DNA of 12,566 nucleotides from an uncultured bacterium (GCA_964510165.1 CAZEBC010000095.1:1-12566); one strand, 5' to 3'; counted from the stretch's first letter, positions 40 to 12,205 are shown. Notes: a model not told the origin generated them from the letters alone. Made by a program: numbers and translations.

Positions 40-94
40 AGGGGTCAGACCTTGACATTTGACACGCTTTGTCACATGTCAAGGTCTGACCCCT
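40..94. repeat. Palindromic REP-like hairpin, copy 1 (GGGGTCAGACCTTGA family); possible terminator or mRNA-stabilising stem
   Basis: Perfect 19-bp arms AGGGGTCAGACCTTGACAT (40-58) / ATGTCAAGGTCTGACCCCT (76-94), inner TGACA/TGTCA stem and a 5-nt loop. A near-identical copy lies at 1384-1436. Confidence 0.85.
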
Positions 95-1361
95 ATGAAC
101 GTTTGCTCGTGACCTCGGCCTCATATTTTCTGACTTGATCGATCCATAATTCGCGCGGAGGGACATTCATTTTGAGGCAGTAATAGTCCCAGACGGCGCC
201 GAACGGCATGCCCTTGAGTTCCTCCAGGAGCGCCAATCGGCCGAAGTTATCGCCTGTTTCCTCCAACCTGAGGAGTCTTCGCCTCGGTTCCAGGAGGGCG
301 TACAGGATTGCTTTCAGGGCAGCGCGCGCGCCGACCACCCAGGCGCCGATCCGGTTGATGCTCGCATCGAAGAAATCCAGCCCGAAATGCACGCGGTCGA
401 GCGCGCCGCTGCGGACGATTTCCTCAGCGAGGTTCCTGGTTTCGTCATTCAACGTGACAACGTGATCGCTGTCCCACCTGAGTCCCCGGGTGATGTGGAG
501 CAGTATTTCGGGAGAGAACTGCAAGATTGCCGATATCTTATCGGCAACCGATTCCGTTGGATGAAAGTGTCCCATGTCGAGACAAATCATCTTGCCCTTC
601 GTCAGAGCGTATCCCATATAAAACTCGTGGGAGCCGACGACGAAGGCCTCGCTGCCGATCCCGAACAATTTGCTTTCGAGCGCGTCTTTCATCCGTGAGG
701 GGTCGTACTCGACCGAGAAGATTTCATCGAGAGACTCCTTCAGGATTTCTCTGTGCGCCCAACGGTCAATGGGAATGTCCTTTGAGCCGTCGGGTATCCA
801 AAGGTTATGGATGCAGGGACTCGTCAGCTTGCCGCCGATAAAGTCGCTGATGTATCTGCATCTCTTGACGTGCTCGATCCAGAATTTTCGGATTTCCTTG
901 TCTTTGCTGCTGAGCGTGAAGCCGGAATCAGCCTTGGGATGCGAAAAACAGGTGGCGTTAAAATCGAGTTTCAGCCCCCGTCTCTTTGCCCAATTAATCC
1001 AGCCCGTGTAGTGTCTCGGCTCGATTTCGTTTCGGTTCACGGAGCGGCGTCCGAACTCGCCGTAGCTGGCGTGAAGGCTCAGCCGATGTTTGCCGGGAAT
1101 GAGAGAATACACCTTATCGAGGTCCATGCGCAGTTCGGCGATGGTCCCCGCCTTGCCGGGATAACTCCCCGTGACCTGGATGCCGCCGCCGTCGAGACGC
1201 GCGTCCGGCTTCTCGAAGCCGCCGACGTCGTCGCCCTGCCAGCAGTGAATCGAGAGGGAGACGCCTTCGAAAGCCTGGAGCGCCTTGTCCGTATCAACCC
1301 CAAGCTCTCCGTATCTGGTGCGGGCCATTTGGTAAGCTTTTTCAATGTTTGAGGCGGTCAT
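93..1361 (-). CDS. rhaA: L-rhamnose isomerase
   Basis: 422 aa with RhaA-type motifs SIHCWQGDDVGGFE, LDFNATCFSHP, NLWIPDGSKD, ESKLFGIGSE, VGSHEFYMGY, DMGHFHPTE, RWDSDHVV and GLDFFDASINRIGAW; adjacent to rhaB and rhaD. Confidence 0.96.
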   Translation of the reverse strand: MTASNIEKAYQMARTRYGELGVDTDKALQAFEGVSLSIHCWQGDDVGGFEKPDARLDGGGIQVTGSYPGKAGTIAELRMDLDKVYSLIPGKHRLSLHASYGEFGRRSVNRNEIEPRHYTGWINWAKRRGLKLDFNATCFSHPKADSGFTLSSKDKEIRKFWIEHVKRCRYISDFIGGKLTSPCIHNLWIPDGSKDIPIDRWAHREILKESLDEIFSVEYDPSRMKDALESKLFGIGSEAFVVGSHEFYMGYALTKGKMICLDMGHFHPTESVADKISAILQFSPEILLHITRGLRWDSDHVVTLNDETRNLAEEIVRSGALDRVHFGLDFFDASINRIGAWVVGARAALKAILYALLEPRRRLLRLEETGDNFGRLALLEELKGMPFGAVWDYYCLKMNVPPRELWIDQVRKYEAEVTSKRS

Positions 1362-1383
1362 GAGTGGGTCCCTTTGCCGAGTG

Positions 1384-1436
1384 GGGGTCAGACCTTGAAA
1401 TTTGACAAGGCGTGTCAGATTTCAAGGAGTGACCCC
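1384..1436. repeat. Palindromic REP-like hairpin, copy 2, overlapping the rhaB 3' end
   Basis: GGGGTCAGACCTTGAAATTTGACA-AGGCG-TGTCAGATTTCAAGGAGTGACCCC; same 53-bp length and architecture as 41-93. Confidence 0.85.
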
Positions 1437-2905
1437 TGTTTTCCGAGCATATCGCAAAAACGGTCATAGGCCTCATTCCATTGGGGCGTCCGGTTGGGTA
1501 TGTATGTTATCACATCGAACGACCGTCTGATAACATCACGCATCTCATCGAACGAAGGGACGCGCCCGTGCGAGAGCGCCTGCGCCATGATGTTTCCGAT
1601 AGCGGTAGCCTCGACGGGGCCTGCAATGACGGGGACGCCAGTTGCGTCCGCCGTGAATTGGCACAAGAGCTGATTCCTTGCGCCTCCGCCAATCACATGG
1701 ATTCGGTTTATTGGGAGAGGGGATATCCGCCGCAACTGGTCCAGCACAAGCCGGTACTTGAGCGCGAGGCTCTCGAGGATGCATCGCACGATTTCGCTCC
1801 AGGATGCGGGCGGCTTTTGGGCGGTCCTGTTGCAGGCTCTGCGTATTGCGTCAGGCATATCGGGCGGATTCAGGAACTCAGGCCAATCGGGATCAATCAG
1901 GGCCGGAAATGGTTTTGCGGCTTGCGCGGACTCAAGCAGTTCGTCATAGCCCAGAGCCTTTTCTCGCTCCCAAGCCCTTCGGCATTCCTGGAGCAGCCAC
2001 AGCCCTGCGATGTTCTTCAAGAACCTGAATGTTTGCCCAACGCCGCCCTCATTCGTGAAATTCAACTTCATGGATTCAGGGGTTATGATCGGGGCCTTCG
2101 TTTCGATTCCCATGAGGGACCATGTGCCGGAGCTGATGTAGGCCCAATCCTCTCCCTCCGCCGGGATCGCCGCCACAGCCGAACCTGTGTCATGCGTGGC
2201 GACCGCAATCACGGGAAGCTCGGGAATGCCAGCGTGTCGTGAGACGTCCTGGGATATTCTTCCAATGACGCACCCTGGCGGAACGATATCCTGCATCAAT
2301 GACATGGGTAATTCCAGCGCCGAAAGGAGTTCATTCTCCCAGACTCGCTTGATTGGATTATAGAGTTGCGAGGTGGTGGCGAAGGTAAACTCGGTCTTCT
2401 TTACACCGGTCAAGAGGTAGTTGAGCAGGTCGGGGATGAATAAGAGGTCGCTGGCGACCTCCAGCAGGGGAGATTTGTCGCGAACCATCGCTTCAAGTTG
2501 GAACAACGTGTTCAGCGGAAGAAACTGAATGCCCGTCAACTCATACACGCGCTCGCGGGGGACCTTCTTGAAGAAGGATTCCATCGCGCCGTCGGTTCGG
2601 CTGTCGCGGTAGGCGAACGGCAGGCCGAGTATACTGCCGTCCCGCGCGAGGAGTCCGAAATCAACTCCCCACGTGTCGATTCCGACGCTGTCGGGGACGC
2701 GCTCGCGCGCGCAAGTATGGAGGCCTTCCTTAATCCGCTCGAAGAGGTTGAAGATATTCCAGTGGAGATGCCCATGAACCGAGAGCGTGCCGTTGGGAAA
2801 GCGAGAAACCTCGCGAATGGAAAGCTTGTCATCCCGCAATTCCCCGAGGATGCCGCGTCCGCCCGACGCTCCCAAATCAAACGCAAGAAAAGCGGATGAA
2901 TTCAC
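1415..2905 (-). CDS. rhaB: Rhamnulokinase (FGGY carbohydrate kinase)
   Basis: GTG start; motifs AFDLGASGGR, GIDTWGVDFGL, YRDSRT, HDTGSAV, YISSGTWSLMG, FTNEGG, LKNIAGLW, GGGARN and GPVEATAIGN; lies between rhaD and rhaA. Confidence 0.93.
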   Translation of the reverse strand: MNSSAFLAFDLGASGGRGILGELRDDKLSIREVSRFPNGTLSVHGHLHWNIFNLFERIKEGLHTCARERVPDSVGIDTWGVDFGLLARDGSILGLPFAYRDSRTDGAMESFFKKVPRERVYELTGIQFLPLNTLFQLEAMVRDKSPLLEVASDLLFIPDLLNYLLTGVKKTEFTFATTSQLYNPIKRVWENELLSALELPMSLMQDIVPPGCVIGRISQDVSRHAGIPELPVIAVATHDTGSAVAAIPAEGEDWAYISSGTWSLMGIETKAPIITPESMKLNFTNEGGVGQTFRFLKNIAGLWLLQECRRAWEREKALGYDELLESAQAAKPFPALIDPDWPEFLNPPDMPDAIRRACNRTAQKPPASWSEIVRCILESLALKYRLVLDQLRRISPLPINRIHVIGGGARNQLLCQFTADATGVPVIAGPVEATAIGNIMAQALSHGRVPSFDEMRDVIRRSFDVITYIPNRTPQWNEAYDRFCDMLGKQGSLLEI

Positions 2906-2935
2906 TTGAGACTACTCGCCTTGATGTTTGTGGCC

Positions 2936-2978
2936 GGTTATTTGGGGACACCATGCGGCATGGTGTCCCCAAATAACC
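2936..2978. repeat. Perfect 20-bp inverted repeat (GGGGACACCA core), REP-like hairpin between rhaD and rhaB
   Basis: GGTTATTTGGGGACACCATG (2936-2955), CGG loop, CATGGTGTCCCCAAATAACC (2959-2978). Confidence 0.85.
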
Positions 2979-2994
2979 TTTGGCGCCGCTGTGT

Positions 2995-3816
2995 CTATTC
3001 TCCCAGATTGAACGCGCGCGCCAACTCATCAAGCTGCTCTTTGCTGAGGCCCGTCGGGGCATGGCCCACGTTGCGGCACTTGAGAATGACGGACGCGGCC
3101 TTATTCACGATGTCAATCAAATCGAACGCCACGGCGGGGTTTTCGGCCTTTGCGACGCATCCATGTATTTCCCACAGGACCACCGAGCACCCTCGGCGGA
3201 AGCCATCCACGGTTGCGCGCGCCAGCGATTCGGAGCCGGGCATCGCATATGGCACGAAGCCGACGCCACGCGGCAGGTTGACCTTGACTTCAGGATGCAC
3301 GCACCACAACGCACGATTGAGAGAGCCCTCGTCCCGATATTCAGGCAGATGCGTGAGGACTATCAGTTCGGTAGGGTGCGTGTGCAGGACAACCTTTTCG
3401 GCTGAGCCGCTCTCGCGGAGATACTCGTGGAGCCTCAGATGTGTGGGGAACTCGGAGGTTGGTTTGAAATTCGGGGATGAAGCGCCGCCCCAGACGATCT
3501 GATATGCCGAGCCGTTTTCAGATATCTGCAATATGCACAGGTTACCGGCGGGGTCGCGCGCGATGTCTCTAAATCTTCGTCCCGAGCCTGTGACAAGAAA
3601 ATAGCGATTCGAGAGAACGGGATAGTTGTATGGGAGCGCTCGCGGGATTGCGCGCGGACGCGCCATTACGGCATCAGAAACAAGTTCCGTGATATCGACC
3701 GACAGATTCCCTGCGTTGCGTTCGGCCCAGCCCTTTTCCCAGAGGTATCCGGAAATAAGCAATATTTCCTCACGCACAGGTTTGAGAGCAGGACATTCGG
3801 CAATCAAATCGTTCAT
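2995..3816 (-). CDS. rhaD: Rhamnulose-1-phosphate aldolase (class II aldolase)
   Basis: Motifs LWEKGWAERNAGNLS, LVTGSG, PTSEFPTH, HTHPTEL (metal-binding His), PGSESLA and WEIHG. Start placed at ATG 3816 (MNDLIAE) because of a GGGAG SD and a resulting 273 aa length typical of RhaD; 3852 is an alternative start. Confidence 0.92.
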   Translation of the reverse strand: MNDLIAECPALKPVREEILLISGYLWEKGWAERNAGNLSVDITELVSDAVMARPRAIPRALPYNYPVLSNRYFLVTGSGRRFRDIARDPAGNLCILQISENGSAYQIVWGGASSPNFKPTSEFPTHLRLHEYLRESGSAEKVVLHTHPTELIVLTHLPEYRDEGSLNRALWCVHPEVKVNLPRGVGFVPYAMPGSESLARATVDGFRRGCSVVLWEIHGCVAKAENPAVAFDLIDIVNKAASVILKCRNVGHAPTGLSKEQLDELARAFNLGE

Positions 3817-3937
3817 GGTTGCACGCTCCCACTTTGGCTTCCGAGGAGACATTATATCTTCCCGGCGTCCCCAGAATCCATTGGCGCCCGACAAATGTGG
3901 GCTTTCTTGAGCGAGGGGGCGGCCTCTTGAGAGCAAT

Positions 3938-4960
3938 TCATGTTCTCTGCGCGAACTCCTCGATGACAGCGACCGCGTTTTCGGTCGGGACCTCTGGCAT
4001 GAGCGGTTTTGCTGGAGCGAGGATGTATCCGCCGCCTTTTCCCATCTCACGGATAAGGCGTCGGATTTCGTTTCGGACCTCTTGCGGAGAGCCGAACGGG
4101 AGTGTCTGCTGGGTACCGAGGCCGCCCCACAGACGCAGGTTGTTTCCATAGCGACGCTTGATCTCATACACATCCATCGCCTCAGGCTGGAGCGATTCGA
4201 GCACATCGAGCCCCATGTCGATCATATCGGGAATGATCTCGAACACGTTGCCGCAGCAGTGCGTGATGGCCCACTTGCCGTGCTGATGGGCGCGCTCGTA
4301 AAGTCTTTGGGTACGCGGCTTGAAGAGCTTTCGCCAGCGTTCGGGGCCGATGATGACGCCGCGTTGGTCGCCCCAGTCGTCCCCGAAGAAGACGCCGTCT
4401 ATCGGGAGTTGGCAGAGTTTATCAACCATCGCGAGGTGCATCTCAAGAATTCGGTCTAGTAGTTCCTCGTAGAAGGCGGTGTTGAGCACGGTGTCCATGA
4501 GCGCGTTCTCGAAGCCGCGAAGCGTCCATGAGCGTTCCCACAGGCCGAAGTTGAGCTGGCCGAGGATGAATTTGTGAGGGTTCTCGTTGATGATGAGATC
4601 GGCGCTGCCCTTGTCAAGTGAATTGAGGACGGTCTTCTGGACCGCATCGAAATCATAACCGTAGAGGCTGGGTTCCTTCAGAGGAGAGCTGACGAGATGA
4701 AGTGGCCGCGCAGAGAAATCCCATACGCAGCCATACTCATCCCTTACGCGCCGGTCATCGAGCAATTCAGGCAGACCCATGACAGGGTAGCTTACGAGCG
4801 TCATGTGCGGCTGAATCCTTTTTTCCCATTCGCAGCTGCCATAATATTCGGTCAGCTTGTCTTCGACTTCCGGCTCGAGGATAACGTCATATGGCACGAT
4901 GTCGGTCTGCTCGAAGTTGAGGGCTGCCAGAACGCGGGCTTTAGGGGTGTAGTTGTCCAT
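3938..4960 (-). CDS. Uroporphyrinogen decarboxylase-fold protein (MtaA/CmuA-like), putative substrate:corrinoid methyltransferase
   Basis: Motifs RDEYGCVW, LRGFENALMD, GDDWGDQRG, THCCGN, LWGGLGTQQTLPFGSPQEV and GGGYILAP. ATG at 4960 follows SD AAAGGAGAGG. Confidence 0.85.
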   Translation of the reverse strand: MDNYTPKARVLAALNFEQTDIVPYDVILEPEVEDKLTEYYGSCEWEKRIQPHMTLVSYPVMGLPELLDDRRVRDEYGCVWDFSARPLHLVSSPLKEPSLYGYDFDAVQKTVLNSLDKGSADLIINENPHKFILGQLNFGLWERSWTLRGFENALMDTVLNTAFYEELLDRILEMHLAMVDKLCQLPIDGVFFGDDWGDQRGVIIGPERWRKLFKPRTQRLYERAHQHGKWAITHCCGNVFEIIPDMIDMGLDVLESLQPEAMDVYEIKRRYGNNLRLWGGLGTQQTLPFGSPQEVRNEIRRLIREMGKGGGYILAPAKPLMPEVPTENAVAVIEEFAQRT

Positions 4961-5000
4961 CTGCAACCTCTCCTTTGCTGGGAATAATAAGGTCAGCTAT

Positions 5001-6101
5001 TCACAAACTGCATCCGTTCTCCATGAACGCCTCGTAGATGACCATATGACGTTCGGGTGAAAGGTTTATGTCGTCGGGGTCGGGATAGTGACGGGCCATG
5101 AGTCCGCCATTGAATTGATTGAGGGTTCTAACCATTTCGCCGACTTCTCTCCTAATATCATCGTCGGAGGGATTCGCCGTGGTGGACCACTGGATGTCGA
5201 GGGTGTTCCAGAAGCAGATCCTTCCGCCGAATCTATCTGCGAGTTCGCGATAACCCATGAGACGCGGTTGGTCCAGTTGCGCGACGTCCACGCCGATCTC
5301 GATCATGTCCGGAATGATGTCGAGAATCTGGCCGCAGTTGTGCCATATGTAGTGCATGCCGTGTTCGTGAGCGGTCTGCACAATCCGTGCGTACCAAGGC
5401 TTGTAGAACCGCCGGAAAATCTTTGGGTTCATTTGGAGTGTCGTTTGCAAGCCCCAGTCTTCCCAAGTCATGTAGGCGTCAACTCCGCCTATTCTCGCCC
5501 ATTGCTTGATGATCGAGATTATCAGCGTGGAAAGGCGCTCCAGCAGCGCCTGCAATCCCTCGGGCTGAGTGTAGGGAGCGACCATGAGTTCCTCGAAGCC
5601 AAGCAGCGCGCGCATGCGTTCAAACATCATGACCGGGTCAAACGCGACTATGTATTTGCCGGCCTCGCGGGCCTTCTCGACGTATGGCTGGAGCCGGTCG
5701 AATCTATCGGGTGAGGCAAGGTCGGGAAACTTGCAAGCGTCGAGTTTGGAGAGGTCCCTGAGCGGATGGTCAAAGGCGTGGTCCCATGTTCTGCCCGTGA
5801 CTTCCTGTCCAACACCCCATTCATCGTAGTATCTGCTGCCTCTCGCCATTTGCTTTTTCTTCTTTTCATTTGCCAGAATCTCGACGGGGTTATCGCCCTC
5901 GGCATCGGCTGCGTCCAGAAACGGAGGCAGTGCGGCGACCTCGAAGAAATCACTTGCGAGGGGAATGAGGAAGCTGTAAGGTATGCGGGGCGGGCTGTCG
6001 AATTTGATAGCCCGCCTGACGATCTCGCGACTTGTCATGCCGGCTGGCGTCGGCGTGGGAGCGATATACAGGTCCAGTAGCTGTTGTAGCCATGGATTCA
6101 T
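5001..6101 (-). CDS. Uroporphyrinogen decarboxylase-fold protein (MtaA/CmuA-like), second paralog
   Basis: Motifs MTSREIVRRAI, YDEWGVG, LLGFEELM, WEDWGLQ, WHNCGQI and GRICFW. SD AGGAGA lies upstream of ATG 6101. Confidence 0.82.
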   Translation of the reverse strand: MNPWLQQLLDLYIAPTPTPAGMTSREIVRRAIKFDSPPRIPYSFLIPLASDFFEVAALPPFLDAADAEGDNPVEILANEKKKKQMARGSRYYDEWGVGQEVTGRTWDHAFDHPLRDLSKLDACKFPDLASPDRFDRLQPYVEKAREAGKYIVAFDPVMMFERMRALLGFEELMVAPYTQPEGLQALLERLSTLIISIIKQWARIGGVDAYMTWEDWGLQTTLQMNPKIFRRFYKPWYARIVQTAHEHGMHYIWHNCGQILDIIPDMIEIGVDVAQLDQPRLMGYRELADRFGGRICFWNTLDIQWSTTANPSDDDIRREVGEMVRTLNQFNGGLMARHYPDPDDINLSPERHMVIYEAFMENGCSL

Positions 6102-6158
6102 GAGAGGTCTCCTGGGTCAATCCATAAGCTGTTCAAGATGTGTATACGATCGCGGCCT

Positions 6159-6788
6159 TCACTCAACCTTCAGGACATCGCCGATGAAGTGTTTGATGCC
6201 CTCGTATATCCAATCCTGTCCGCGCACGTCTCCAACGAGCATGAGCCATGACAGGTGTGAGTTGATGCCATGGATGATTCTCGCCATCACGTCAGGGGAG
6301 TGTCGCGAACTGATCTTGCGGTCCTCGATAGCTTTCTTGATGTCGTCGGTCAGTTGCTTAATGAACACTTCGTCCGCCCGGCGTATCTCCGCTCTAACTT
6401 CCGGATCGTTCACCGTCGCGGCGACAGCCCAGATGAGGGCCGCGTCACGGTTGAACTCCGTCGTGTAATACTTGAACATGTCCGTGAAAATCTGGTATCG
6501 CCTGATGGGGTCTTCGTTCTCCTCGAGCACTTTTTGGGTCCAGCTCAGCAGGTCCTCCCTGCTTTTCCTGATGACCTCGAGGAACAACTCCTTCTTGCTT
6601 CTGAAGTGCATGTAAATCACTGGTTCGGTGATGCCCGCGGCTTCCGCGATTCTCGCGGTGGTTGCGCCCTGATAGTTCTCCTCAACAAACACCTTGAGGG
6701 CGGCCTCGAGGATTTCCATCCTGCGGTTTTCGGACTTGACCCGGTAAGGCTTTCGCTTGCGTTGCGAGTGTTTAGGCACGCCTGTCAT
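6159..6788 (-). CDS. TetR/AcrR family transcriptional regulator
   Basis: N-terminal HTH RRMEILEAALKVFVEENYQGATTARIAEAAGITEPVIYMHFRSKKELF; 209 aa; divergent from the methyltransferase genes. Confidence 0.93.
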   Translation of the reverse strand: MTGVPKHSQRKRKPYRVKSENRRMEILEAALKVFVEENYQGATTARIAEAAGITEPVIYMHFRSKKELFLEVIRKSREDLLSWTQKVLEENEDPIRRYQIFTDMFKYYTTEFNRDAALIWAVAATVNDPEVRAEIRRADEVFIKQLTDDIKKAIEDRKISSRHSPDVMARIIHGINSHLSWLMLVGDVRGQDWIYEGIKHFIGDVLKVE

Positions 6789-6853
6789 AGTGGTCGAATC
6801 TCCACTTGCAAGTCTTAAGTAACTACTATTATATTCGTCCCTGGTTAGTGAAT

Positions 6854-6883
6854 ACTTTAATACTTCTAGACAGCGGATGTCAA
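6854..6883 (-). promoter_or_regulatory. Putative sigma70 promoter for tetR and the leftward operon
   Basis: Minus-strand TTGACA (6878-6883), 18-bp spacer, TAAAGT (6854-6859). Confidence 0.5.
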
Positions 6884-6921
6884 GTTGCGCCGGATTTTCG
6901 GGATAGTTCCAAAAAGAGTGC

Positions 6922-6950
6922 TTGACAAACGATGCCTAGTGTGTTAGTAT
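6922..6950 (+). promoter_or_regulatory. Putative sigma70 promoter with extended -10 for the MT2-corrinoid operon
   Basis: TTGACA (6922-6927), 17-bp spacer, TAGTAT (6945-6950), with TG at 6942-6943; a GGAGG SD follows before ATG 6976. Confidence 0.7.
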
Positions 6951-6959
6951 GTGCTAACA
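6942..6959. promoter_or_regulatory. Candidate TetR operator palindrome TGTTAG-N6-CTAACA overlapping the -10 box
   Basis: TGTTAGTATGTGCTAACA; related TWAGT-N4-RCTWW sites occur at 6816-6829 and 6845-6858. Confidence 0.55.
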
Positions 6960-6975
6960 AATTTGTGGAGGCCTC

Positions 6976-7770
6976 ATGCTCATTGTCGGAGAACGCATCA
7001 ATACAAGCAGAAGAGAGGTTGCCGAGGCGACGAGGGCGCGGAACAAGGAGTTCATACTCTCTGAGGCGACGCGGCAGATGGAAGCGGGGGCGCACCTGCT
7101 TGACGTCAACGCCGGCACGTACGCCGAAGAGGAGAGGACGTATCTGCGATGGATCGTCGAGACCATCCGTTCCGAGGTTGGCGCTCCTCTGTGCCTGGAC
7201 AGCACCGACCCGCGCGTCATAGCCGATGCGCTTCAGATTTGCGGCAAGGGAGCGATGATAAACTCGATAACCGCCGAAAAGGAAAGCTACTCGGCCATGC
7301 TTCCGCTGGCGCGAGAGTATAGTTGCCGGATTGTGGCTCTCTGTCTGGACGACGGTGGGATTCCCACAGAGCTTGAGGACAAGCTTAAGGTCGGGTGCAA
7401 GCTTGTCGATTCGTTGCTTTCGGATGGTATTGCGCCGGGGGACATCTACGTCGATCCTCTCGTCATGGCTGTGAGCACCGATCAGAGGAGCGGATCCGTG
7501 GCGCTCCGGGTTATCAGGGAGATCAAGGAGAGGTATCCGGGCATTCACGCGATTTGCGGCCTCAGCAATGTGTCTTTCGGGCTGCCCGCGAGGAAGTTGC
7601 TCAACCGCGTGTTTCTTGTGGCGGCAATGGCGGCGGGGCTCGATGCCGTTATCATTGATCCACTTGACAAGCCTTTGATGGCGAATCTCATATCGGCGAA
7701 TGCGCTTCTGGGGAACGATGAGATGTGCATGGGATACATCCGCGCATACCGCGGCGGCAGGCTGGAGTGA
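6976..7770 (+). CDS. Methyltetrahydrofolate:corrinoid methyltransferase (pterin-binding, AcsE/MT2-like)
   Basis: Motifs IVGERIN, LDVNAG, LCLDSTD, MINSIT, IYVDP and GLSNVSFGLP, typical of the AcsE/MetH pterin-binding domain; 264 aa standalone, directly upstream of a corrinoid protein. Confidence 0.9.
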   Translation: MLIVGERINTSRREVAEATRARNKEFILSEATRQMEAGAHLLDVNAGTYAEEERTYLRWIVETIRSEVGAPLCLDSTDPRVIADALQICGKGAMINSITAEKESYSAMLPLAREYSCRIVALCLDDGGIPTELEDKLKVGCKLVDSLLSDGIAPGDIYVDPLVMAVSTDQRSGSVALRVIREIKERYPGIHAICGLSNVSFGLPARKLLNRVFLVAAMAAGLDAVIIDPLDKPLMANLISANALLGNDEMCMGYIRAYRGGRLE

Positions 7771-7810
7771 AGGAATTCCTGGAGACTCGCATTCGCAGAA
7801 TTGTTCGCTT

Positions 7811-7837
7811 GTAGGGCGGTTCGCGAACCGCTTCTGC
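7811..7837. repeat. GTAG-type REP-like palindrome
   Basis: GTAGGGCGGTTCGCGAACCGCTTCTGC, containing the perfect 16-bp palindrome GCGGTTCGCGAACCGC (7816-7831) after a GTAG tetranucleotide. Confidence 0.65.
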
Positions 7838-7874
7838 ATACAGGGGCGCTGTTGCCTTTAAAGGAGGAAGGAAG

Positions 7875-8513
7875 ATGGCTGATCTGAGGAAGCTTTCCGA
7901 GGCCCTGCAAGAGGGGGACATGAATGAGGTGAAGAAACTGACGACCCAAGCCCTTCAGGAAGGACTCCCGCCGGAACGAATCCTTGCGGAAGGGCTTATC
8001 GCTGGCATGGACGTGGTTGGGGTGAAATTCAGGCGCAATGAGATGTACATTCCGGAGGTGCTGATCGCAGCGAGGGCCATGCATGCGGGCCTGAGCATCC
8101 TGGAGCCGAAACTGGCGGAGACGGGCGCCAAACCGGTCGGCAAGGTCGTCCTCGGCACGGTGAAAGGCGACCTGCACGACATCGGCAAGAACCTCGTCGG
8201 CATGATGCTGAGAGGCGCGGGATTCAAAGTGGTCGACTTGGGCATTGACGTCCCCGCGGAGAAATTCGTCGAGGGCGCCAAGGAGGAAGGGGTTCAGATT
8301 CTCGCGATGTCCGCTCTTCTTTCGACGACGATGCCGCGCCTGAGGGAGAACATAGCGGCGTTGCATGCTGCGGGACTCACCGGGAAAGTGAAGATCATGG
8401 TCGGAGGAGCGCCGGTTACGAAGCAATACGCGGATGAAATCGGGGCTGACGGATATGGAGCGGACGCGGCGGCGGCAGTTGATGTCGCGCGCGGGCTTCT
8501 CGGAGTATCCTGA
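7875..8513 (+). CDS. Cobalamin-binding corrinoid protein (MttC/MtbC/MtaC-like methyl carrier)
   Basis: N-terminal cap (GLIAGMDVVGVKF, YIPEVLIAARAM) and B12-binding DxHxxG motif (GDLHDIGKNLV), plus SALLSTT and VGGAP; strong SD AAGGAGG. Confidence 0.95.
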   Translation: MADLRKLSEALQEGDMNEVKKLTTQALQEGLPPERILAEGLIAGMDVVGVKFRRNEMYIPEVLIAARAMHAGLSILEPKLAETGAKPVGKVVLGTVKGDLHDIGKNLVGMMLRGAGFKVVDLGIDVPAEKFVEGAKEEGVQILAMSALLSTTMPRLRENIAALHAAGLTGKVKIMVGGAPVTKQYADEIGADGYGADAAAAVDVARGLLGVS

Positions 8514-8519
8514 ACCCAG

Positions 8520-8632
8520 GTCATTTCGAGGGAGGAACGCAGTTCCGTCCGAAGTAACCCCGGCATAGTTGGTCGCGGCGCTCTATCGAGATTGCTTCGT
8601 CATCCCGCTTTCGCGAGATTCCTCGCAATGAC
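8520..8632. repeat. GTCATT..CGAGG / CCTCGCAATGAC palindromic element (RPE-like structured repeat)
   Basis: Terminal inverted repeats GTCATTTCGAGG / CCTCGCAATGAC (11/12 match) and internal arms CGAAGTAACCCCG (8550-8562) / CGAGATTGCTTCG (8587-8599). This matches the widespread GTCATTGCGAG...GAAGCAATC...GATTGCTTC...CTCGCAATGAC architecture. Confidence 0.75.
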
Positions 8633-8690
8633 TCTCCTGAGAAAATGAGCGGATTTTCGGGTCTTGCAGTAGAAACGAGGTGGAACCACG

Positions 8691-9626
8691 ATGCCGGAAC
8701 GCATCATTCTGGACACGGACATAGGAACCGACGTGGATGACGCATACGCGGTCGCGTTTCTTGCAAACTCTCCTGAGGTTCAGATCGAAGCGGTCACAAC
8801 CGTCTGGGCGGACGCCGAGTTGCGCGCCCGGATCGTCAAGAAACTCTTGAATGCGTTGGGCAGGCCAGACGTGCCGGTCGCCGTCGGGGAGAGCTTCCCC
8901 TTGAATCCCGAGCGTCCCGCCTTCCTGATGGGACATGAGGGGCAGGGCATATTGGACGGCGGCGAGAAGCTCCGGCTTTCCGACACGCCCGCGTTGGAGA
9001 TGATCGAGTCGCTGCTGAAGGCATACCCCCGCCAACTCAAGGTTGTCCTCATTGGTCCGCAGACAAACCTCGGCAAGCTGCTCTCCAGAAGGCCGGAGCT
9101 TGCGACGCTCATCAAGGAGTTTGTTATTATGGGCGGGACTCCATTCTATGGGCCGAGGGAAATGAGGCTTTTTGGCGAGAAGCCGATCGACTACAATTTC
9201 ATGGCGGACCCTGAAGCCGCGCGAATCGTATTTGACTCAGGGGTTCCCATTACTATGGTCGGCTGCAATGTAACAATGCCCACGCTGCTCCGGCCGGAAC
9301 ATATGGAGCGTATCGGGCGCTGTAACACCCCGGCGACTGAGCTTTTGTATTCCATGACGGACGTATGGCTGAAGGTGATAGGCCAGAACGAGACCCCGAT
9401 GCACGATGCCCTCGCCTGTTCCGCGTTATTCACGCTCGAATTCCTGGACACCATGATGCTGAACGTGACCATCGAGACGAAGGGCGAGCTCACCTCGGGC
9501 CTCACGGTCGTGAACCGTTATAACAACGAGGAATGGAATAGGGTGAAGGTGGCGACAGACGTCAGGTCGAGGGAGTTTGTGGAATTCATGATGCAACGAA
9601 TCGTCGCCCGGAAGACTCTGTCATGA
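8691..9626 (+). CDS. Nucleoside hydrolase, inosine-uridine preferring family
   Basis: N-terminal Asp cluster IILDTDIGTDVDDAYA, IGPQTNL, IMGG, YNFMADPEAARIV and PMHDALA; SD GAGGTGG. Confidence 0.9.
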   Translation: MPERIILDTDIGTDVDDAYAVAFLANSPEVQIEAVTTVWADAELRARIVKKLLNALGRPDVPVAVGESFPLNPERPAFLMGHEGQGILDGGEKLRLSDTPALEMIESLLKAYPRQLKVVLIGPQTNLGKLLSRRPELATLIKEFVIMGGTPFYGPREMRLFGEKPIDYNFMADPEAARIVFDSGVPITMVGCNVTMPTLLRPEHMERIGRCNTPATELLYSMTDVWLKVIGQNETPMHDALACSALFTLEFLDTMMLNVTIETKGELTSGLTVVNRYNNEEWNRVKVATDVRSREFVEFMMQRIVARKTLS

Positions 9627-9674
9627 TGAAGATGCGGAAAGCGTTTCGCAATGTCATAAGAAAGGATTGAGCAC

Positions 9675-10733
9675 ATGAGAGTTTCGGACTTGCCAAAGCC
9701 ATCGCCGGATTTCACGCGGCTCCGCAACGTCATCACGGGCGAAGCGTTTCCCGACCGTCTGCCGCTTGTGGATTTGCTCGTCGACCAGCCAGTGAAGGAG
9801 CAGATACTCGGCCGCCGAACAGTTTCGGATTTCACCAATGATCCTGACGAGGCGCGTCAAAGGATTGATGATGAGATCGAATATCGCTACGTCCTGGGAT
9901 ACGATTACATTGATGTGTATCCCTTTGTGTACTTCGGGGCAAGCTATGCGATATCGGAGAGCAGCGAGCGCAACTGGATGTCCGAAGCTACGGCGGTGGT
10001 CAAGAATCGCGCCGATTTCGAGCAGAGGTTCTGGCCCGCCCCCGAAATGGTGGATTACTCCGTGCTGGAATACGCGGCTTCGCGCTTGCCCGACGGAATG
10101 ATGATGATCCCGCGCATATCCGGCGTCTTTGAGGGAGTCAGCCAACTGACCGGACTTGAAGGGCTGTCCTATCTGCTTGTTGACGATCCGACTCTTGTTG
10201 GCGAGATGTTTGACAAGGTGGGAAGCATCCTCCTTGCAGTTACCGAGAGATATGTGCAAATGGAGGGTGTGGGCGCCCTTTTTGTAGGGGACGACCTGGG
10301 CTTCAACACAGGTCCGCTCCTGTCTCCGAAACATTTCAGGAAATATGTTTTCCCGTGGCACAAGAGAATCAGTGAAGCGGCGCACGCTCAGAACGTGCCT
10401 TTTCTCCTGCATAGTTGCGGGAATATTGAGCTCATTATGGAAGACCTTATCGAGGATGTAGGAATTGATGCGAGGCATTCCTTTCAGGATGCGGTCGTTC
10501 CGATCGAAACGGCTGTGGAGCGCTATTCAGATCGCATCGCGCTTCTCGGGGGCGTGGATATGGACCTGCTCGCAAGAGGGACCGAGAAGGAAGTAAGGAA
10601 ACGCACAAGGGAAATCATTGAGAAGTGTGCCCCCACCGGCAGGTTTGCGCTTGGCGCCGGGAACAGCATCGCATCATACCTCAACATCGATAATTATCTG
10701 GCGATGCTCGATGAGGGGAGACGCAGCGCCTGA
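9675..10733 (+). CDS. Uroporphyrinogen decarboxylase-fold protein (MtaA/CmuA-like), third paralog
   Basis: Motifs LTGLEGLSYLL, GDDLGFNTG, LHSCGNI, LLGGVDMDLL and FALGAGNSI; 352 aa. Confidence 0.85.
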   Translation: MRVSDLPKPSPDFTRLRNVITGEAFPDRLPLVDLLVDQPVKEQILGRRTVSDFTNDPDEARQRIDDEIEYRYVLGYDYIDVYPFVYFGASYAISESSERNWMSEATAVVKNRADFEQRFWPAPEMVDYSVLEYAASRLPDGMMMIPRISGVFEGVSQLTGLEGLSYLLVDDPTLVGEMFDKVGSILLAVTERYVQMEGVGALFVGDDLGFNTGPLLSPKHFRKYVFPWHKRISEAAHAQNVPFLLHSCGNIELIMEDLIEDVGIDARHSFQDAVVPIETAVERYSDRIALLGGVDMDLLARGTEKEVRKRTREIIEKCAPTGRFALGAGNSIASYLNIDNYLAMLDEGRRSA

Positions 10734-10921
10734 GGATTGACCTCATCTTGTACGCTCGCGTATGAACTCACCGACTCGTTCAAAGACCCCACCAGCCTAT
10801 CCGCAAGAAACCAAAGAAGTCAAACGAAAGCGCGGCAAGGAGAATGCATTGGTAATGCCATGCGGGGTGATATATACTTTATATGGAGAATGTGTCTATA
10901 ATCTTGGAAGAAAGAAACTCC

Positions 10922-12205
10922 ATGTCCGTCAGCGCTCAACAACCTTTTCATATCATGGCCAAGCCTTGCGGCGCCATGTGCAATTTGGAATGCAAGTACT
11001 GTTTTTTCCTGAAGAAGGCCGACCTCTATCCCGGCAGCAACTTCAGGATGAGCGATGAGGTGCTTGAAAGCTATATAAGGCAGGTAATCGAGACGCACAG
11101 CGCGCCTCAGGTCATCATCGCCTGGCAGGGCGGCGAGCCGACACTGATGGGTCTGGATTTCTTCCGGAAGTCGATCGAGTGCGCGAGAAAGTATCAGACA
11201 CCCGGAACCACTATCCAGAATACGCTCCAGACGAACGGCGTACTCATTGACGACGCATGGTGTGAGTTCTTCCGGGAAAACAATTTCCTGATTGGTCTCA
11301 GCCTTGACGGACCGCGGGAACTGCATGACGCCTACCGAAAGGATAAGGGCGGCCGGTCGGTCTTCGACAAGGTCATGCGCGCCGCCCAGTTAATGCGGCG
11401 GCACGGGGTGGAGTTCAACATCCTCGCCACCGTCAACGCGGCCAATTCACAGCATCCAATCGAGGTGTACCAGTTCTTCCGAGACGAGGTCGGCGCTCAG
11501 TTTATCCAGTTCATCCCGATTGTTGAGCGCGAAGCGGAATCCGCGTTTGTTGAAAAAACCAGGGTGACGGACCGCTCGGTCAAACCGGAGCAGTATGGCC
11601 GGTTCCTAAACGCCATTTTCGACGAGTGGATGAAACGCGACGTCGGCCGGGTGTTCGTGAATCATTTCGATGCCGCGCTTGCGTCATGGGTGGGCGCTCC
11701 GCCGGCCCTGTGCACGACGTCGCCGACCTGCGGGTTCGCAATGGTCCTCGAACACAACGGCGACCTGTATTCGTGCGACCATTTTGTCGAGCCGGGCTAT
11801 CTTTTGGGCAATATTCTGGAGCGGCCCCTGGCCGAACTTGCGGCTTCCGCAAGGCAAACCAGGTTTGGGCAAGACAAGCGAGACACACTGCCTCGCTATT
11901 GCCGGGAGTGCGAGTTCCTGTCGGCCTGTCACGGCGAATGTCCGAAGAATCGTCTCTCGAAAACGCCCGACGGCGAGCCGGGCCTCAATTACCTCTGCGC
12001 CGGCTTCAAATCATTTTTCGCGCATATTGACCGACCGATGAGAATCATGGCGGAACTGCTGCGGCAGAAGAGGGCGCCCGCGGAAATCATGCAGATGCAT
12101 GCTCAGGAGGCTGCGCAAGCCCGCGCTACCGAAAAGACAGGGAGAAACGATCCATGCCCATGCGGAAGCGGCCTGAAGTTCAAGCGCTGCCACGGACGGG
12201 CGTAA
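10922..12205 (+). CDS. Anaerobic sulfatase-maturating enzyme (radical SAM + SPASM) with C-terminal SEC-C motif
   Basis: CNLECKYC radical SAM motif, WQGGEPTL, QTNG, SLDGP, SPASM cysteines (C-x5-C, YSCDH, CxxC-x5-C-x3-CP, YLC) and GRNDPCPCGSGLKFKRCHG. Start uncertain (10883, 10922 or later). Confidence 0.92.
   Translation: MSVSAQQPFHIMAKPCGAMCNLECKYCFFLKKADLYPGSNFRMSDEVLESYIRQVIETHSAPQVIIAWQGGEPTLMGLDFFRKSIECARKYQTPGTTIQNTLQTNGVLIDDAWCEFFRENNFLIGLSLDGPRELHDAYRKDKGGRSVFDKVMRAAQLMRRHGVEFNILATVNAANSQHPIEVYQFFRDEVGAQFIQFIPIVEREAESAFVEKTRVTDRSVKPEQYGRFLNAIFDEWMKRDVGRVFVNHFDAALASWVGAPPALCTTSPTCGFAMVLEHNGDLYSCDHFVEPGYLLGNILERPLAELAASARQTRFGQDKRDTLPRYCRECEFLSACHGECPKNRLSKTPDGEPGLNYLCAGFKSFFAHIDRPMRIMAELLRQKRAPAEIMQMHAQEAAQARATEKTGRNDPCPCGSGLKFKRCHGRA

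Follow-up and report, generated by a model that had tools for sequence, protein, structure and literature searches.

What is the role of a cobalamin-dependent methyl-transfer system that is encoded among genes for the degradation of L-rhamnose? This question is raised by a 12,566-nucleotide stretch of DNA from an uncultured bacterium (GCA_964510165.1, CAZEBC010000095.1:1-12566), hereafter called the window, which represents the first 12,566 bases of the 15,038-base contig C95. The window contains two divergent gene arms. The minus-strand arm encodes, in this order, a TetR-family regulator, two proteins of the uroporphyrinogen decarboxylase (URO-D)/MtaA fold (UROD1 and UROD2) and the rhamnose enzymes RhaD, RhaB and RhaA. 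The plus-strand arm encodes a pterin-binding methyl-corrinoid:tetrahydrofolate (THF) methyltransferase (MT2), a corrinoid carrier protein (CP), a nucleoside-hydrolase-like protein (NH), a third URO-D-fold protein (UROD3) and an anaerobic sulfatase maturase. The original prediction, made from the sequence alone, was that this locus may strip methyl ethers from methyl-rhamnose or a related sugar, transfer the methyl group to THF and feed the sugar into the RhaA/RhaB/RhaD pathway.

Comparison of the locus with the genomes of related and unrelated bacteria provides an answer in two parts. That B12-dependent methyl transfer is coupled to the catabolism of deoxyhexose glycans is well supported by gene content and order, because orthologues of the URO-D, CP and MT2 genes are co-operonic with genes for glycoside hydrolases (GH) of the GH29, GH51-like, GH2 and GH4 families, for Gfo/Idh/MocA oxidoreductases and for RhaD, RhaB and RhaA in two further genera. 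As to the reaction itself, we propose that the window belongs to a TetR-controlled glycan locus of an anaerobic bacterium of the Candidatus Abyssobacteria type, in which the URO-D proteins demethylate O-methyl sugars; we put the chance of this proposal just short of even. The predicted tie between the corrinoid system and rhamnose catabolism was thus upheld in part: the corrinoid unit is linked to sugar genes in three genera, whereas its link to the rha genes is only partly conserved.

A corrinoid unit inside a putative glycan utilization locus

Genes were called by Pfam and NCBIfam scans (Table 1). Both arrangements described in the original prediction, namely two URO-D/MtaA-fold genes co-oriented upstream of rhaD-rhaB-rhaA behind TetR and a divergent arm with a pterin-binding MT2, a DxHxxG corrinoid protein and a third URO-D-fold gene, were recovered. 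Its gene list was accurate for all genes that it named; the NH gene, the sulfatase maturase and the start of an L-fucose-isomerase-like (FucI-like) gene had been left out. Of the phosphorylative L-rhamnose pathway RhaA-RhaB-RhaD, both RhaA and RhaD score above the NCBIfam equivalog cut-offs. The RhaB-like kinase scores slightly below the cut-off of TIGR02627 (507.3 bits vs 527.95), which is by far its best FGGY model, and reaches 455 vs 639 bits with NF007925. Neither a rhamnose transporter nor a mutarotase was seen in the window.

As for methyl transfer, the corrinoid carrier and the pterin-binding MT2 of a three-component corrinoid system were both found, and the CP motifs D99-x-H101-x-x-G104, S146-x-L148 and G177-G178 show no variation across 21 aligned sequences. 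The candidates for the substrate:corrinoid methyltransferase (MT1) are three PF01208 proteins that score above the Pfam cut-off, occur in a context linked to CP and to the corrinoid activator RACo, and reach the cut-off of no equivalog model. The three URO-D genes, CP and MT2 form one conserved unit, as supported by the comparisons described below.

Table 1. Genes and intergenic features of the locus; positions refer to the window unless a contig is named
Feature	Position	Strand	Evidence and remarks
FucI-like gene, first codons	1..26	-	remainder on contig C217
rhaA, L-rhamnose isomerase	93..1361	-	PF06134, 621 bits; NF002203, 656.9 (cut-off 572)
rhaB-like FGGY kinase (rhamnulokinase family)	1415..2905	-	FGGY_N and FGGY_C both found
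rhaD, rhamnulose-1-phosphate aldolase	2995..3816, or 3852 with upstream ATG	-	NF002963, 262.3 (cut-off 170)
UROD2-rhaD junction	3817..3937		85-121 nt, depending on the rhaD start
UROD2, URO-D/MtaA fold, candidate MT1	3938..4966	-	PF01208, 77.6 bits
UROD1, URO-D fold, candidate MT1	5001..6101	-	PF01208, 49.8 bits
TetR-family regulator heading the minus-strand operon	6159..6788	-	TetR_N, 59.3 bits
Divergent control region	6789..6975		-35 TTGACA and -10 TAGTAT serving the MT2 arm
MT2, AcsE/MeTr type	6976..7770	+	Pterin_bind PF00809, 92.3 bits; NF005719, 322.8 (cut-off 259)
CP, corrinoid (cobalamin-binding) carrier	7875..8513	+	B12-binding_2 PF02607, 78.7 bits; B12-binding PF02310, 97.6 bits
NH, IU_nuc_hydro family	8691..9626	+	PF01156, 200.7 bits; between CP and UROD3
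UROD3, URO-D/MtaA fold, candidate MT1	9675..10733	+	PF01208, 83.1 bits
Anaerobic sulfatase-maturating radical-SAM enzyme	10883..12205	+	TIGR03942, 503.3 (cut-off 349)
Sulfatase	C95:12786-14141 (L127:787-2142)		PF00884, 137 bits; after the maturase, same contig
GH29 alpha-L-fucosidase	C217, after the FucI-like gene		Alpha_L_fucos, 412.9 bits
GH3	C217, after the GH29 gene		Glyco_hydro_3, 246 bits

The locus extends beyond the window on both sides. Contig C95 runs for a further 2.5 kb (12567-15038, L127), where the sulfatase is followed by a glyoxalase-family gene. At the opposite end, the reverse complement of window bases 1-55 matches the start of contig C217 exactly, and this 55-nt overlap is the sole such link at either end of C95 or C217. 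End overlaps of this kind are left by a de Bruijn assembler at a graph branch, and the adjacency of the two contigs is probable. Contig C217 continues with the body of the FucI-like gene (domains Fucose_iso_N1, N2 and C) and the GH29 and GH3 genes; in a relative from the same family (G004), rhaA is followed by a FucI-like gene in the same order as in the reconstructed locus. Read from the outside inwards, the reconstructed minus arm comprises GH3, GH29, FucI-like, rhaA, rhaB, rhaD, UROD2, UROD1 and TetR, the divergent arm comprises MT2, CP, NH, UROD3, the sulfatase maturase and the sulfatase, and the whole locus spans about 21 kb. On this gene content, it is predicted to be a sulfated deoxyhexose-glycan utilization locus in which a corrinoid methyl-transfer system is centrally placed. 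Because of the FucI-like gene, GH29, GH3 and the sulfatase with its maturase, the enlarged locus favours fucose and sulfated glycans at least as strongly as rhamnose. In common with the canonical L-rhamnose regulon (rhaBAD with RhaS/RhaR or RhaR-type regulators), it encodes RhaA and RhaD equivalogs and a RhaB-like kinase; unlike in that regulon, the rha genes have TetR and two URO-D genes in front of them, with the FucI-like, GH29 and GH3 genes coming after.

The host genome is a fragmented metagenome-assembled genome (MAG) of 325 contigs (4.17 Mb, 97% complete). It encodes a RACo-type reductive activator on contig C69 (RACo_C_ter, 330 bits), outside the window and beside MtrH-like and URO-D genes, and contig C23 carries AcsB and MTHFR together. 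Since the genome has RACo, AcsB and MTHFR, both corrinoid activation and a sink for methyl-THF exist. The genome contains 18 URO-D matches, mostly away from corrinoid genes; on contig C103, URO-D sequence adjoins a homocysteine S-methyltransferase domain. A 108-codon open frame on contig C90 (12759-13079) is 83% identical to UROD2 residues 235-341 and represents either the remnant of a second UROD2 copy or a fragment of a co-assembled strain. Among named records, close relatives of UROD2 are labelled, for instance, Candidatus Abyssobacteria and Candidatus Poribacteria bacterium. A study on 'Ca. Abyssubacteria' (PMC6121073) describes the Wood-Ljungdahl pathway as complete and mentions "multiple corrinoid protein methyltransferases".

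The URO-D proteins as candidate corrinoid methyltransferases

The AlphaFold2 model of UROD2 (pLDDT 94.5) has two tied best structural matches in the PDB, uroporphyrinogen decarboxylase (1j93; Z 26.1, rmsd 3.0, 300 aligned residues) and MtaA (4ay7; Z 26.0, rmsd 3.3, 303 aligned residues, 22% identity), followed by MetE-type barrels at about Z 15. The residues H236 and C238 of UROD2 form an H-x-C motif that is aligned to zinc ligands of MtaA and is invariant in 40 sequences; these ligands we take to be His240, Cys242 and Cys319, a numbering that agrees with the alignment offsets. HemE activity was considered and rejected for all three URO-D proteins (TIGR01464, 16-24 bits vs a cut-off of 303). 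The features of MtaA/MtbA-type thiol methyltransferases are kept only in part, the third Cys being absent and the scores being 66, 27 and 65 bits vs 244 for NF004889 and 64, 20 and 61 bits vs 235 for TIGR01463.

The UROD2 family is large: a threshold of E <= 1e-40 gives at least 2,099 clusters of proteins, for which the sources offer no name beyond 'uroporphyrinogen decarboxylase (family)' or 'hypothetical'. Lentisphaerae, Kiritimatiellia, Phycisphaerae, Anaerolineae, Armatimonadota, Verrucomicrobiota and other groups contain UROD2-like genes (40-50% identity). For the counts given below, 30 such loci from other phyla were used, after 4 same-family loci, 8 short or partial contigs, 3 loci at 35-38% identity and 13 distant paralogues had been dropped. 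A corrinoid gene was located within 10 kb in 2 of the 30 loci, and was adjacent in 11 of the 13 distant paralogues (23-37% identity).

The structural tie between the decarboxylase and MtaA, the lack of a corrinoid gene within 10 kb in the other 28 loci, and the high conservation of a family that is named for the decarboxylase only would all suit an explanation in which the URO-D-fold proteins are sugar-modifying enzymes of another kind, such as decarboxylases or isomerases, and CP and MT2 are merely co-regulated with them. Such a role is very unlikely in view of four lines of evidence. First, MT2-CP-NH-UROD3 is a single conserved gene string. Second, orthologues of UROD1 (51-67% identity) on 11 metagenome contigs touch corrinoid genes in 6 cases, being directly beside CP in 4 and beside RACo in 2, including one contig with the order RACo-UROD1-GH5; 3 of the 5 other contigs are shorter than 3.4 kb. 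Third, URO-D genes and stand-alone CP genes co-occur at the genome level: all 10 tested genomes from other phyla with a UROD2-like gene encode a stand-alone CP that is 52-59% identical to the CP of the window, located beside RACo in 3 and beside MT2 in 1 of these 10 loci, and among 31 genomes outside the family a stand-alone CP was found in 4/4 genomes with URO-D hits vs 1/27 without. Fourth, the HemE model scores remain far below the cut-off, as given above. A complex prediction for UROD2 and CP (0.81 vs 0.67 for one unrelated control) was not used either way. On the basis of gene context, a role as corrinoid-dependent methyltransferases, of uncharacterized specificity, is very probable for all three URO-D proteins.

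Several other arrangements of these genes were noted. In a MAG labelled Fimbriimonas (L110:3638-10038), one strand encodes MtaB (542 bits), CP, three URO-D proteins and a homocysteine S-methyltransferase domain protein, with RACo nearby; this cluster looks like a methyl hub draining into methionine. A single stand-alone CP gene is divergent from a gene for an AraC-type regulator of about 400 aa in a Kiritimatiellia MAG (L107:8801-10003) and in a Verrucomicrobiota MAG (L109:8986-10197). An NH gene is directly followed by a URO-D gene in at least three pairs; the loci concerned are in the window (8691-10733), on contig C146 of the same genome (L003:20-2187), in L082:6621-8527 and in L101:8995-11064. 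Because the members of different pairs are so divergent (25-32% identity for NH and 22-35% for URO-D), the pairing looks selected. The pair on C146 is located together with a TetR gene and a glycyl-radical enzyme with its activase.

Linkage of the corrinoid unit to sugar genes

Nine genomes of the same family were searched, and their URO-D loci were compared with limited flanks. Identity between the four lineages UROD1, UROD2, UROD3 and UROD4 is low, at 25-30%; each of them has orthologues in the relatives that are 65-83% identical. Orthologues of UROD2 (63-83% identity) are present in 6 of the 9 genomes, at 7 places, and UROD3 is represented in G005 and G006 (71-72% identity) and, where a contig of G007 ends, by a partial match (65%). 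Two genomes carry the unit in sugar loci. In G005, contig C59 has the order rhaD-rhaB-rhaA-GH51like-UROD2, in which the called open reading frames (ORFs) overlap by 4-13 nt and the contig ends just upstream of rhaD, and contig C54 has MT2-CP-NH-UROD3-UROD4-GFO1-GFO2-GH4-GH2-RraA-like, divergent from TetR-UROD1-GH29-UROD5, where GFO1 and GFO2 are two Gfo/Idh/MocA genes; the order MT2-CP-NH-UROD3 is thereby retained. In G007, the arm MT2-CP-LutA-LutB-LutC-UROD4-UROD3 is divergent from TetR-GH51like-PfkB-GH2-UROD2-UROD1-GFO1-GFO2, which is followed by a very divergent URO-D-like gene. In G006, UROD3 faces a FucI-like gene and GH4, and in G004 the order is GFO1-GFO2-rhaD-rhaB-rhaA-FucI-like. The relatives thus show a shuffled network of URO-D, CP, MT2, the GFO pair, glycosidases and rhaDBA/FucI-like genes, and no fixed operon.

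A 360-aa conserved protein was also observed in these genomes (L038:10516-11598 in G006, L037:14150-15232 in G007 and C129:6396-7454 in the host genome; 72-76% identity between genera). Pfam searches at 1e-4 to 1e-8 gave no hit for this protein, and it resembles URO-D only faintly (28% over about 130 aa); its gene adjoins UROD2 in G006 and ends the cluster of G007.

The control region between the two arms is conserved as well. Promoter-like sites are located at 6922-6950 (+) and 6883-6854 (-), three genera share the CTTGACAA block and the -10 block, and TetR orthologues (61-63% identity) occupy the same divergent position in G005 and G007. The palindrome TGTTAG-N6-CTAACA at 6942-6959 overlaps the -10 element and occurs once in the window vs 0 times expected, which makes it a plausible candidate for the TetR operator. 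An inverted-repeat search found nothing at the length limits applied. An Rfam scan of the window at gathering scores gave no match, hence no cobalamin riboswitch.

With 18 URO-D matches among about 4,000 genes, a rough estimate for the host genome is that a rha operon would touch a URO-D gene by chance in about 1 of 100 cases. The adjacency exceeds this expectation and recurs with another gene order in G005. Conservation of the URO-D/rha linkage elsewhere, which had been put forward as a check of the original prediction, was found to be partial: the second, reordered arrangement in G005 speaks for it, whereas 5 of the 7 UROD2 places are free of sugar genes in the examined flanks (G006, G003, G001, G004 and a second copy in G007; the G003 contig is only 4.6 kb long) and the rhaDBA genes of G004 have no URO-D gene in the 18 kb examined. 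These exceptions bear on an explanation in which the rha genes form an independent operon that adjoins the methyltransferase cluster by chance, with no functional coupling between methyl transfer and rhamnose catabolism. It would agree with the gap of 85-121 nt before rhaD, with the lack of a second copy of the palindrome in the window, for instance before rhaD, and with the identity of the rha block, which is 79-86% to G004, where it is unlinked to URO-D genes, and 63-70% to G005. We nevertheless consider it distinctly unlikely. The juxtaposition in G005 involves overlapping ORFs and places UROD2 downstream of rhaDBA, whereas it is upstream in the window; because the position of UROD2 and the kinship of the rha block differ, the two juxtapositions do not share a gene order and probably not an origin either. 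Moreover, the GFO1-GFO2 pair bridges the rha and URO-D clusters, and sugar genes go on past rhaA onto C217. The junction itself contains no minus-strand terminator-like site and only a plus-strand hairpin (3886-3902) in a scan of low power, which is of little weight because its counts are no better than in shuffles (4 terminator-like sites in the whole window vs 12.5 expected). The counts of the promoter scan were also no better than in shuffles, and only the conserved divergent promoter was relied on.

The sugar-free places include two UROD2 orthologues (65-69% identity) downstream of metK-ahcY, in G003 (L039:351-3980) and G001 (L040:9502-14640), neighbours that hint at the methyl cycle and not at sugars. 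They lead to a further explanation, by which the system uses another methyl donor (S- or N-methyl compounds, methylated nucleosides, or 2'-O-methyl-ribose via NH) or runs in the reverse direction, from methyl-THF to a thiol, in the manner of a split methionine synthase. MtaA, the closest solved relative, methylates a thiol, and its H-x-C motif is retained; URO-D genes are located beside homocysteine S-methyltransferase domains on C103 and in the MtaB-CP-3xURO-D-S-methyl_trans cluster of L110; and NH/URO-D pairs are found three times over, formed by unrelated paralogues (25-32% identity). In addition, MtaA-like clusters that lack a THF methylase have been proposed to serve methyl-sulfur or methyl-selenium metabolism (PMC10418091). 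This explanation is fairly unlikely, as it fails to account for the co-operonic GH29, GH51-like, GH2, GH4, GH5, rhaDBA and FucI-like genes in several arrangements, and as the third zinc ligand that is required for thiol activation in MtaA is absent.

A link to sugar genes is also suggested outside the family. In 11 of the 30 UROD2-like loci of other phyla, a glycoside hydrolase or polysaccharide lyase (PL) is encoded within four genes (GH31, GH63-like, GH36, GH116, GH1, GH4, GH99, GH88/PL8, GH28 and GH127), and 6 further loci have carbohydrate esterases, sulfatases or ABC-transporter genes, one with a sugar-type solute-binding protein. As a control, the four genes on each side of a corrinoid gene in nine of the same genomes contained a glycosidase in 0/9 loci. 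The glycosidase neighbourhood of UROD2-like genes in other phyla is thus suggestive but not decisive. Two of the sugar loci with UROD2-like genes, L059:7109-11074 and L069:5636-7012, both contain non-pyrrolysine MTTB-family genes, and L059 in addition encodes a fused GH4-URO-D protein of 824 aa.

A proposed route for demethylation of sugars without oxygen

How could such a system act on a glycan? In the proposed pathway, GH29, GH3 and the sulfatase with its maturase would attack a sulfated polymer rich in deoxyhexoses and free sugars of the L-fucose and L-rhamnose type. UROD1, UROD2 and UROD3 would serve as substrate-specific MT1s that methylate the Co(I) form of the corrinoid protein at the expense of methylated sugar units, for which O-methyl ethers of rhamnose or fucose are the likeliest candidates. 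MT2 would move the methyl group to THF and onward into the Wood-Ljungdahl pathway, the demethylated sugars would enter catabolism through RhaA or the FucI-like protein, RhaB and RhaD, and RACo, encoded elsewhere in the genome, would re-reduce the oxidized corrinoid. Whereas the gene content, the conservation of the corrinoid unit and its recurrent co-operonic linkage to sugar genes are observed, we infer here which compound donates the methyl group, which way the methyl group flows and that the URO-D proteins act as MT1s. O-methyl ethers are the chief methyl modification in polysaccharides, and several regio-specific MT1s on one carrier are a pattern in known O-demethylase systems. Sugar O-demethylation is a good hypothesis, and its scope should extend beyond methyl-rhamnose to the methylated forms of fucose, rhamnose and further sugars found in sulfated glycans. 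In a variant of it that is chemically less demanding, the methyl groups would come from methyl-esterified uronic acids. Polymers of suitable composition exist: cyanobacterial exopolysaccharides contain sulfate, uronic acids, fucose, rhamnose and 2,3-, 3- and 4-O-methyl-rhamnose (PMC4500136).

Several observations weigh against the demethylation of methylated sugars by these proteins. The position of the third zinc ligand of MtaA is an invariant K320 in the 40 UROD2-family sequences and Asn in UROD3, and the NCBIfam models for MtaA and MtbA give the three URO-D proteins 18-66 bits vs cut-offs of 235-600. A PDB sequence search returned only MtaA (E 3e-10 and 0.008) and plant URO-D (E 0.18). The NH partner of UROD3 is left unexplained by a polysaccharide substrate. 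Among the 30 UROD2-like loci of other phyla, rhaA was located within 6 kb in only 1, the scarcity of nearby corrinoid genes noted above points the same way, and the difference between 11/30 and 0/9 for glycosidases (one-sided p ~0.03, estimated by hand) relies on a small control of 9 loci. Within the family, the same applies to the sugar-free UROD2 places, including those behind metK-ahcY, and to the rha operon of G004. Finally, cleavage of an alkyl methyl ether by Co(I) is harder than that of the aryl ethers used by known O-demethylases, a secondary alkoxide being a poor leaving group. Methanol:corrinoid methyltransferase copes with an even harder case by means of a zinc site, and the invariant His and Cys of UROD2, together with acidic and Lys residues, could have a similar role.

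The same chemistry, with aryl ethers being easier to cleave, favours an explanation by which the locus encodes a classical aryl-methyl-ether O-demethylase that acts on methoxylated phenolic or flavonoid glycosides (rhamnosides or fucosides), the sugar part entering the rha and fuc genes and the aglycone being demethylated. Gfo/Idh/MocA oxidoreductases, which are present in the related clusters, are known from flavonoid deglycosylation. The characterized MT1s of URO-D-superfamily O-demethylases all use phenyl methyl ethers; OdmB and VdmB are named as O-demethylases of this superfamily in PMC10418091. The gene content argues the other way, since the sulfatase, maturase, GH29, GH3 and FucI-like genes better match a sulfated polysaccharide than small phenolic glycosides, and neither the window nor the related clusters showed a gene for the catabolism of an aromatic ring; demethylation of an aglycone is thus unlikely. 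The PDB search matched no solved aromatic O-demethylase MT1, a result that speaks neither for nor against membership of the URO-D proteins in that clade.

The proposed sugar-demethylating system resembles several characterized systems and differs from each of them. The O-demethylases of acetogens and Desulfitobacterium (Mtv, Odm and Vdm) consist of an MT1, a corrinoid protein, an MT2 and an activating enzyme. With them the locus has in common the URO-D-superfamily MT1 candidates, a DxHxxG carrier with B12-binding_2 and B12-binding domains, a pterin-binding MT2, a RACo-type activator in the genome and a Wood-Ljungdahl methyl sink. Unlike these systems, which act on aryl methyl ethers, its genes are located in a glycosidase, sulfatase and rhamnose-fucose setting under TetR, and its MT1 candidates have no detectable close characterized relative. 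The methylcobamide:coenzyme M methyltransferases of methanogens (MtaA, MtbA and MtsA) share the fold and the H-x-C motif; unlike them, the proteins of the locus have Lys or Asn as the third ligand and score far below the cut-offs, and their context is bacterial and linked to THF. The type 1 mlp cluster (PMC10418091) likewise has several divergent MtaA-like URO-D paralogues per corrinoid protein in non-methanogens, lacks a THF methyltransferase and is proposed for methyl-sulfur or methyl-selenide; as far as this description goes, the locus is set apart from it by its MT2, its sugar-catabolic neighbours and the lack of an activator in cis.

Sugar methyl ethers such as methyl-rhamnose, methyl-fucose, 6-O-methyl-galactose and 4-O-methyl-glucuronate block the usual catabolism. 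In aerobic marine bacteria, 6-O-methyl-D-galactose of porphyran is demethylated by a cytochrome P450 (PMC6292453; PMC12316285). Its task, the removal of a methyl ether that blocks catabolism, and its encoding in a polysaccharide-utilization locus are shared with the proposed system; the P450 is unrelated to the proteins of the locus, requires O2 and releases formaldehyde, whereas the locus system would be anaerobic and keep the methyl group as methyl-THF. This O2-dependent P450 was the only characterized sugar demethylase found in the open-access literature, where no paper was found that joins corrinoid methyltransferases to methylated sugars; the earlier statement that no characterized B12-dependent sugar O-demethylase was known agrees with this search. 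For anaerobes, a 2025 paper states that demethylation of methyl-galactose "has not been elucidated yet" (PMC12316285).

In its boldest form, our proposal is that UROD1, UROD2 and UROD3 are the first members of a class of carbohydrate O-demethylases that depend on cobalamin but not on oxygen, and that the UROD2 family acts as a 'spoke' that feeds a 'hub' of CP and RACo encoded in the genome; this we hold tentatively, its chances being somewhat below even. The locus provides a defined gene set for testing an oxygen-free route, with three MT1 candidates, one carrier, MT2, a regulator and a probable operator. If the proposal is true, corrinoid methyltransferases would gain a new substrate class, and a large family labelled merely 'uroporphyrinogen decarboxylase family' would gain a function. 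In sediments, mats, the subsurface and guts, polysaccharide breakdown would then be tied to acetogenic and one-carbon metabolism. Anaerobic glycan degraders would gain both the otherwise blocked sugars and a one-carbon unit for folate metabolism or acetogenesis.

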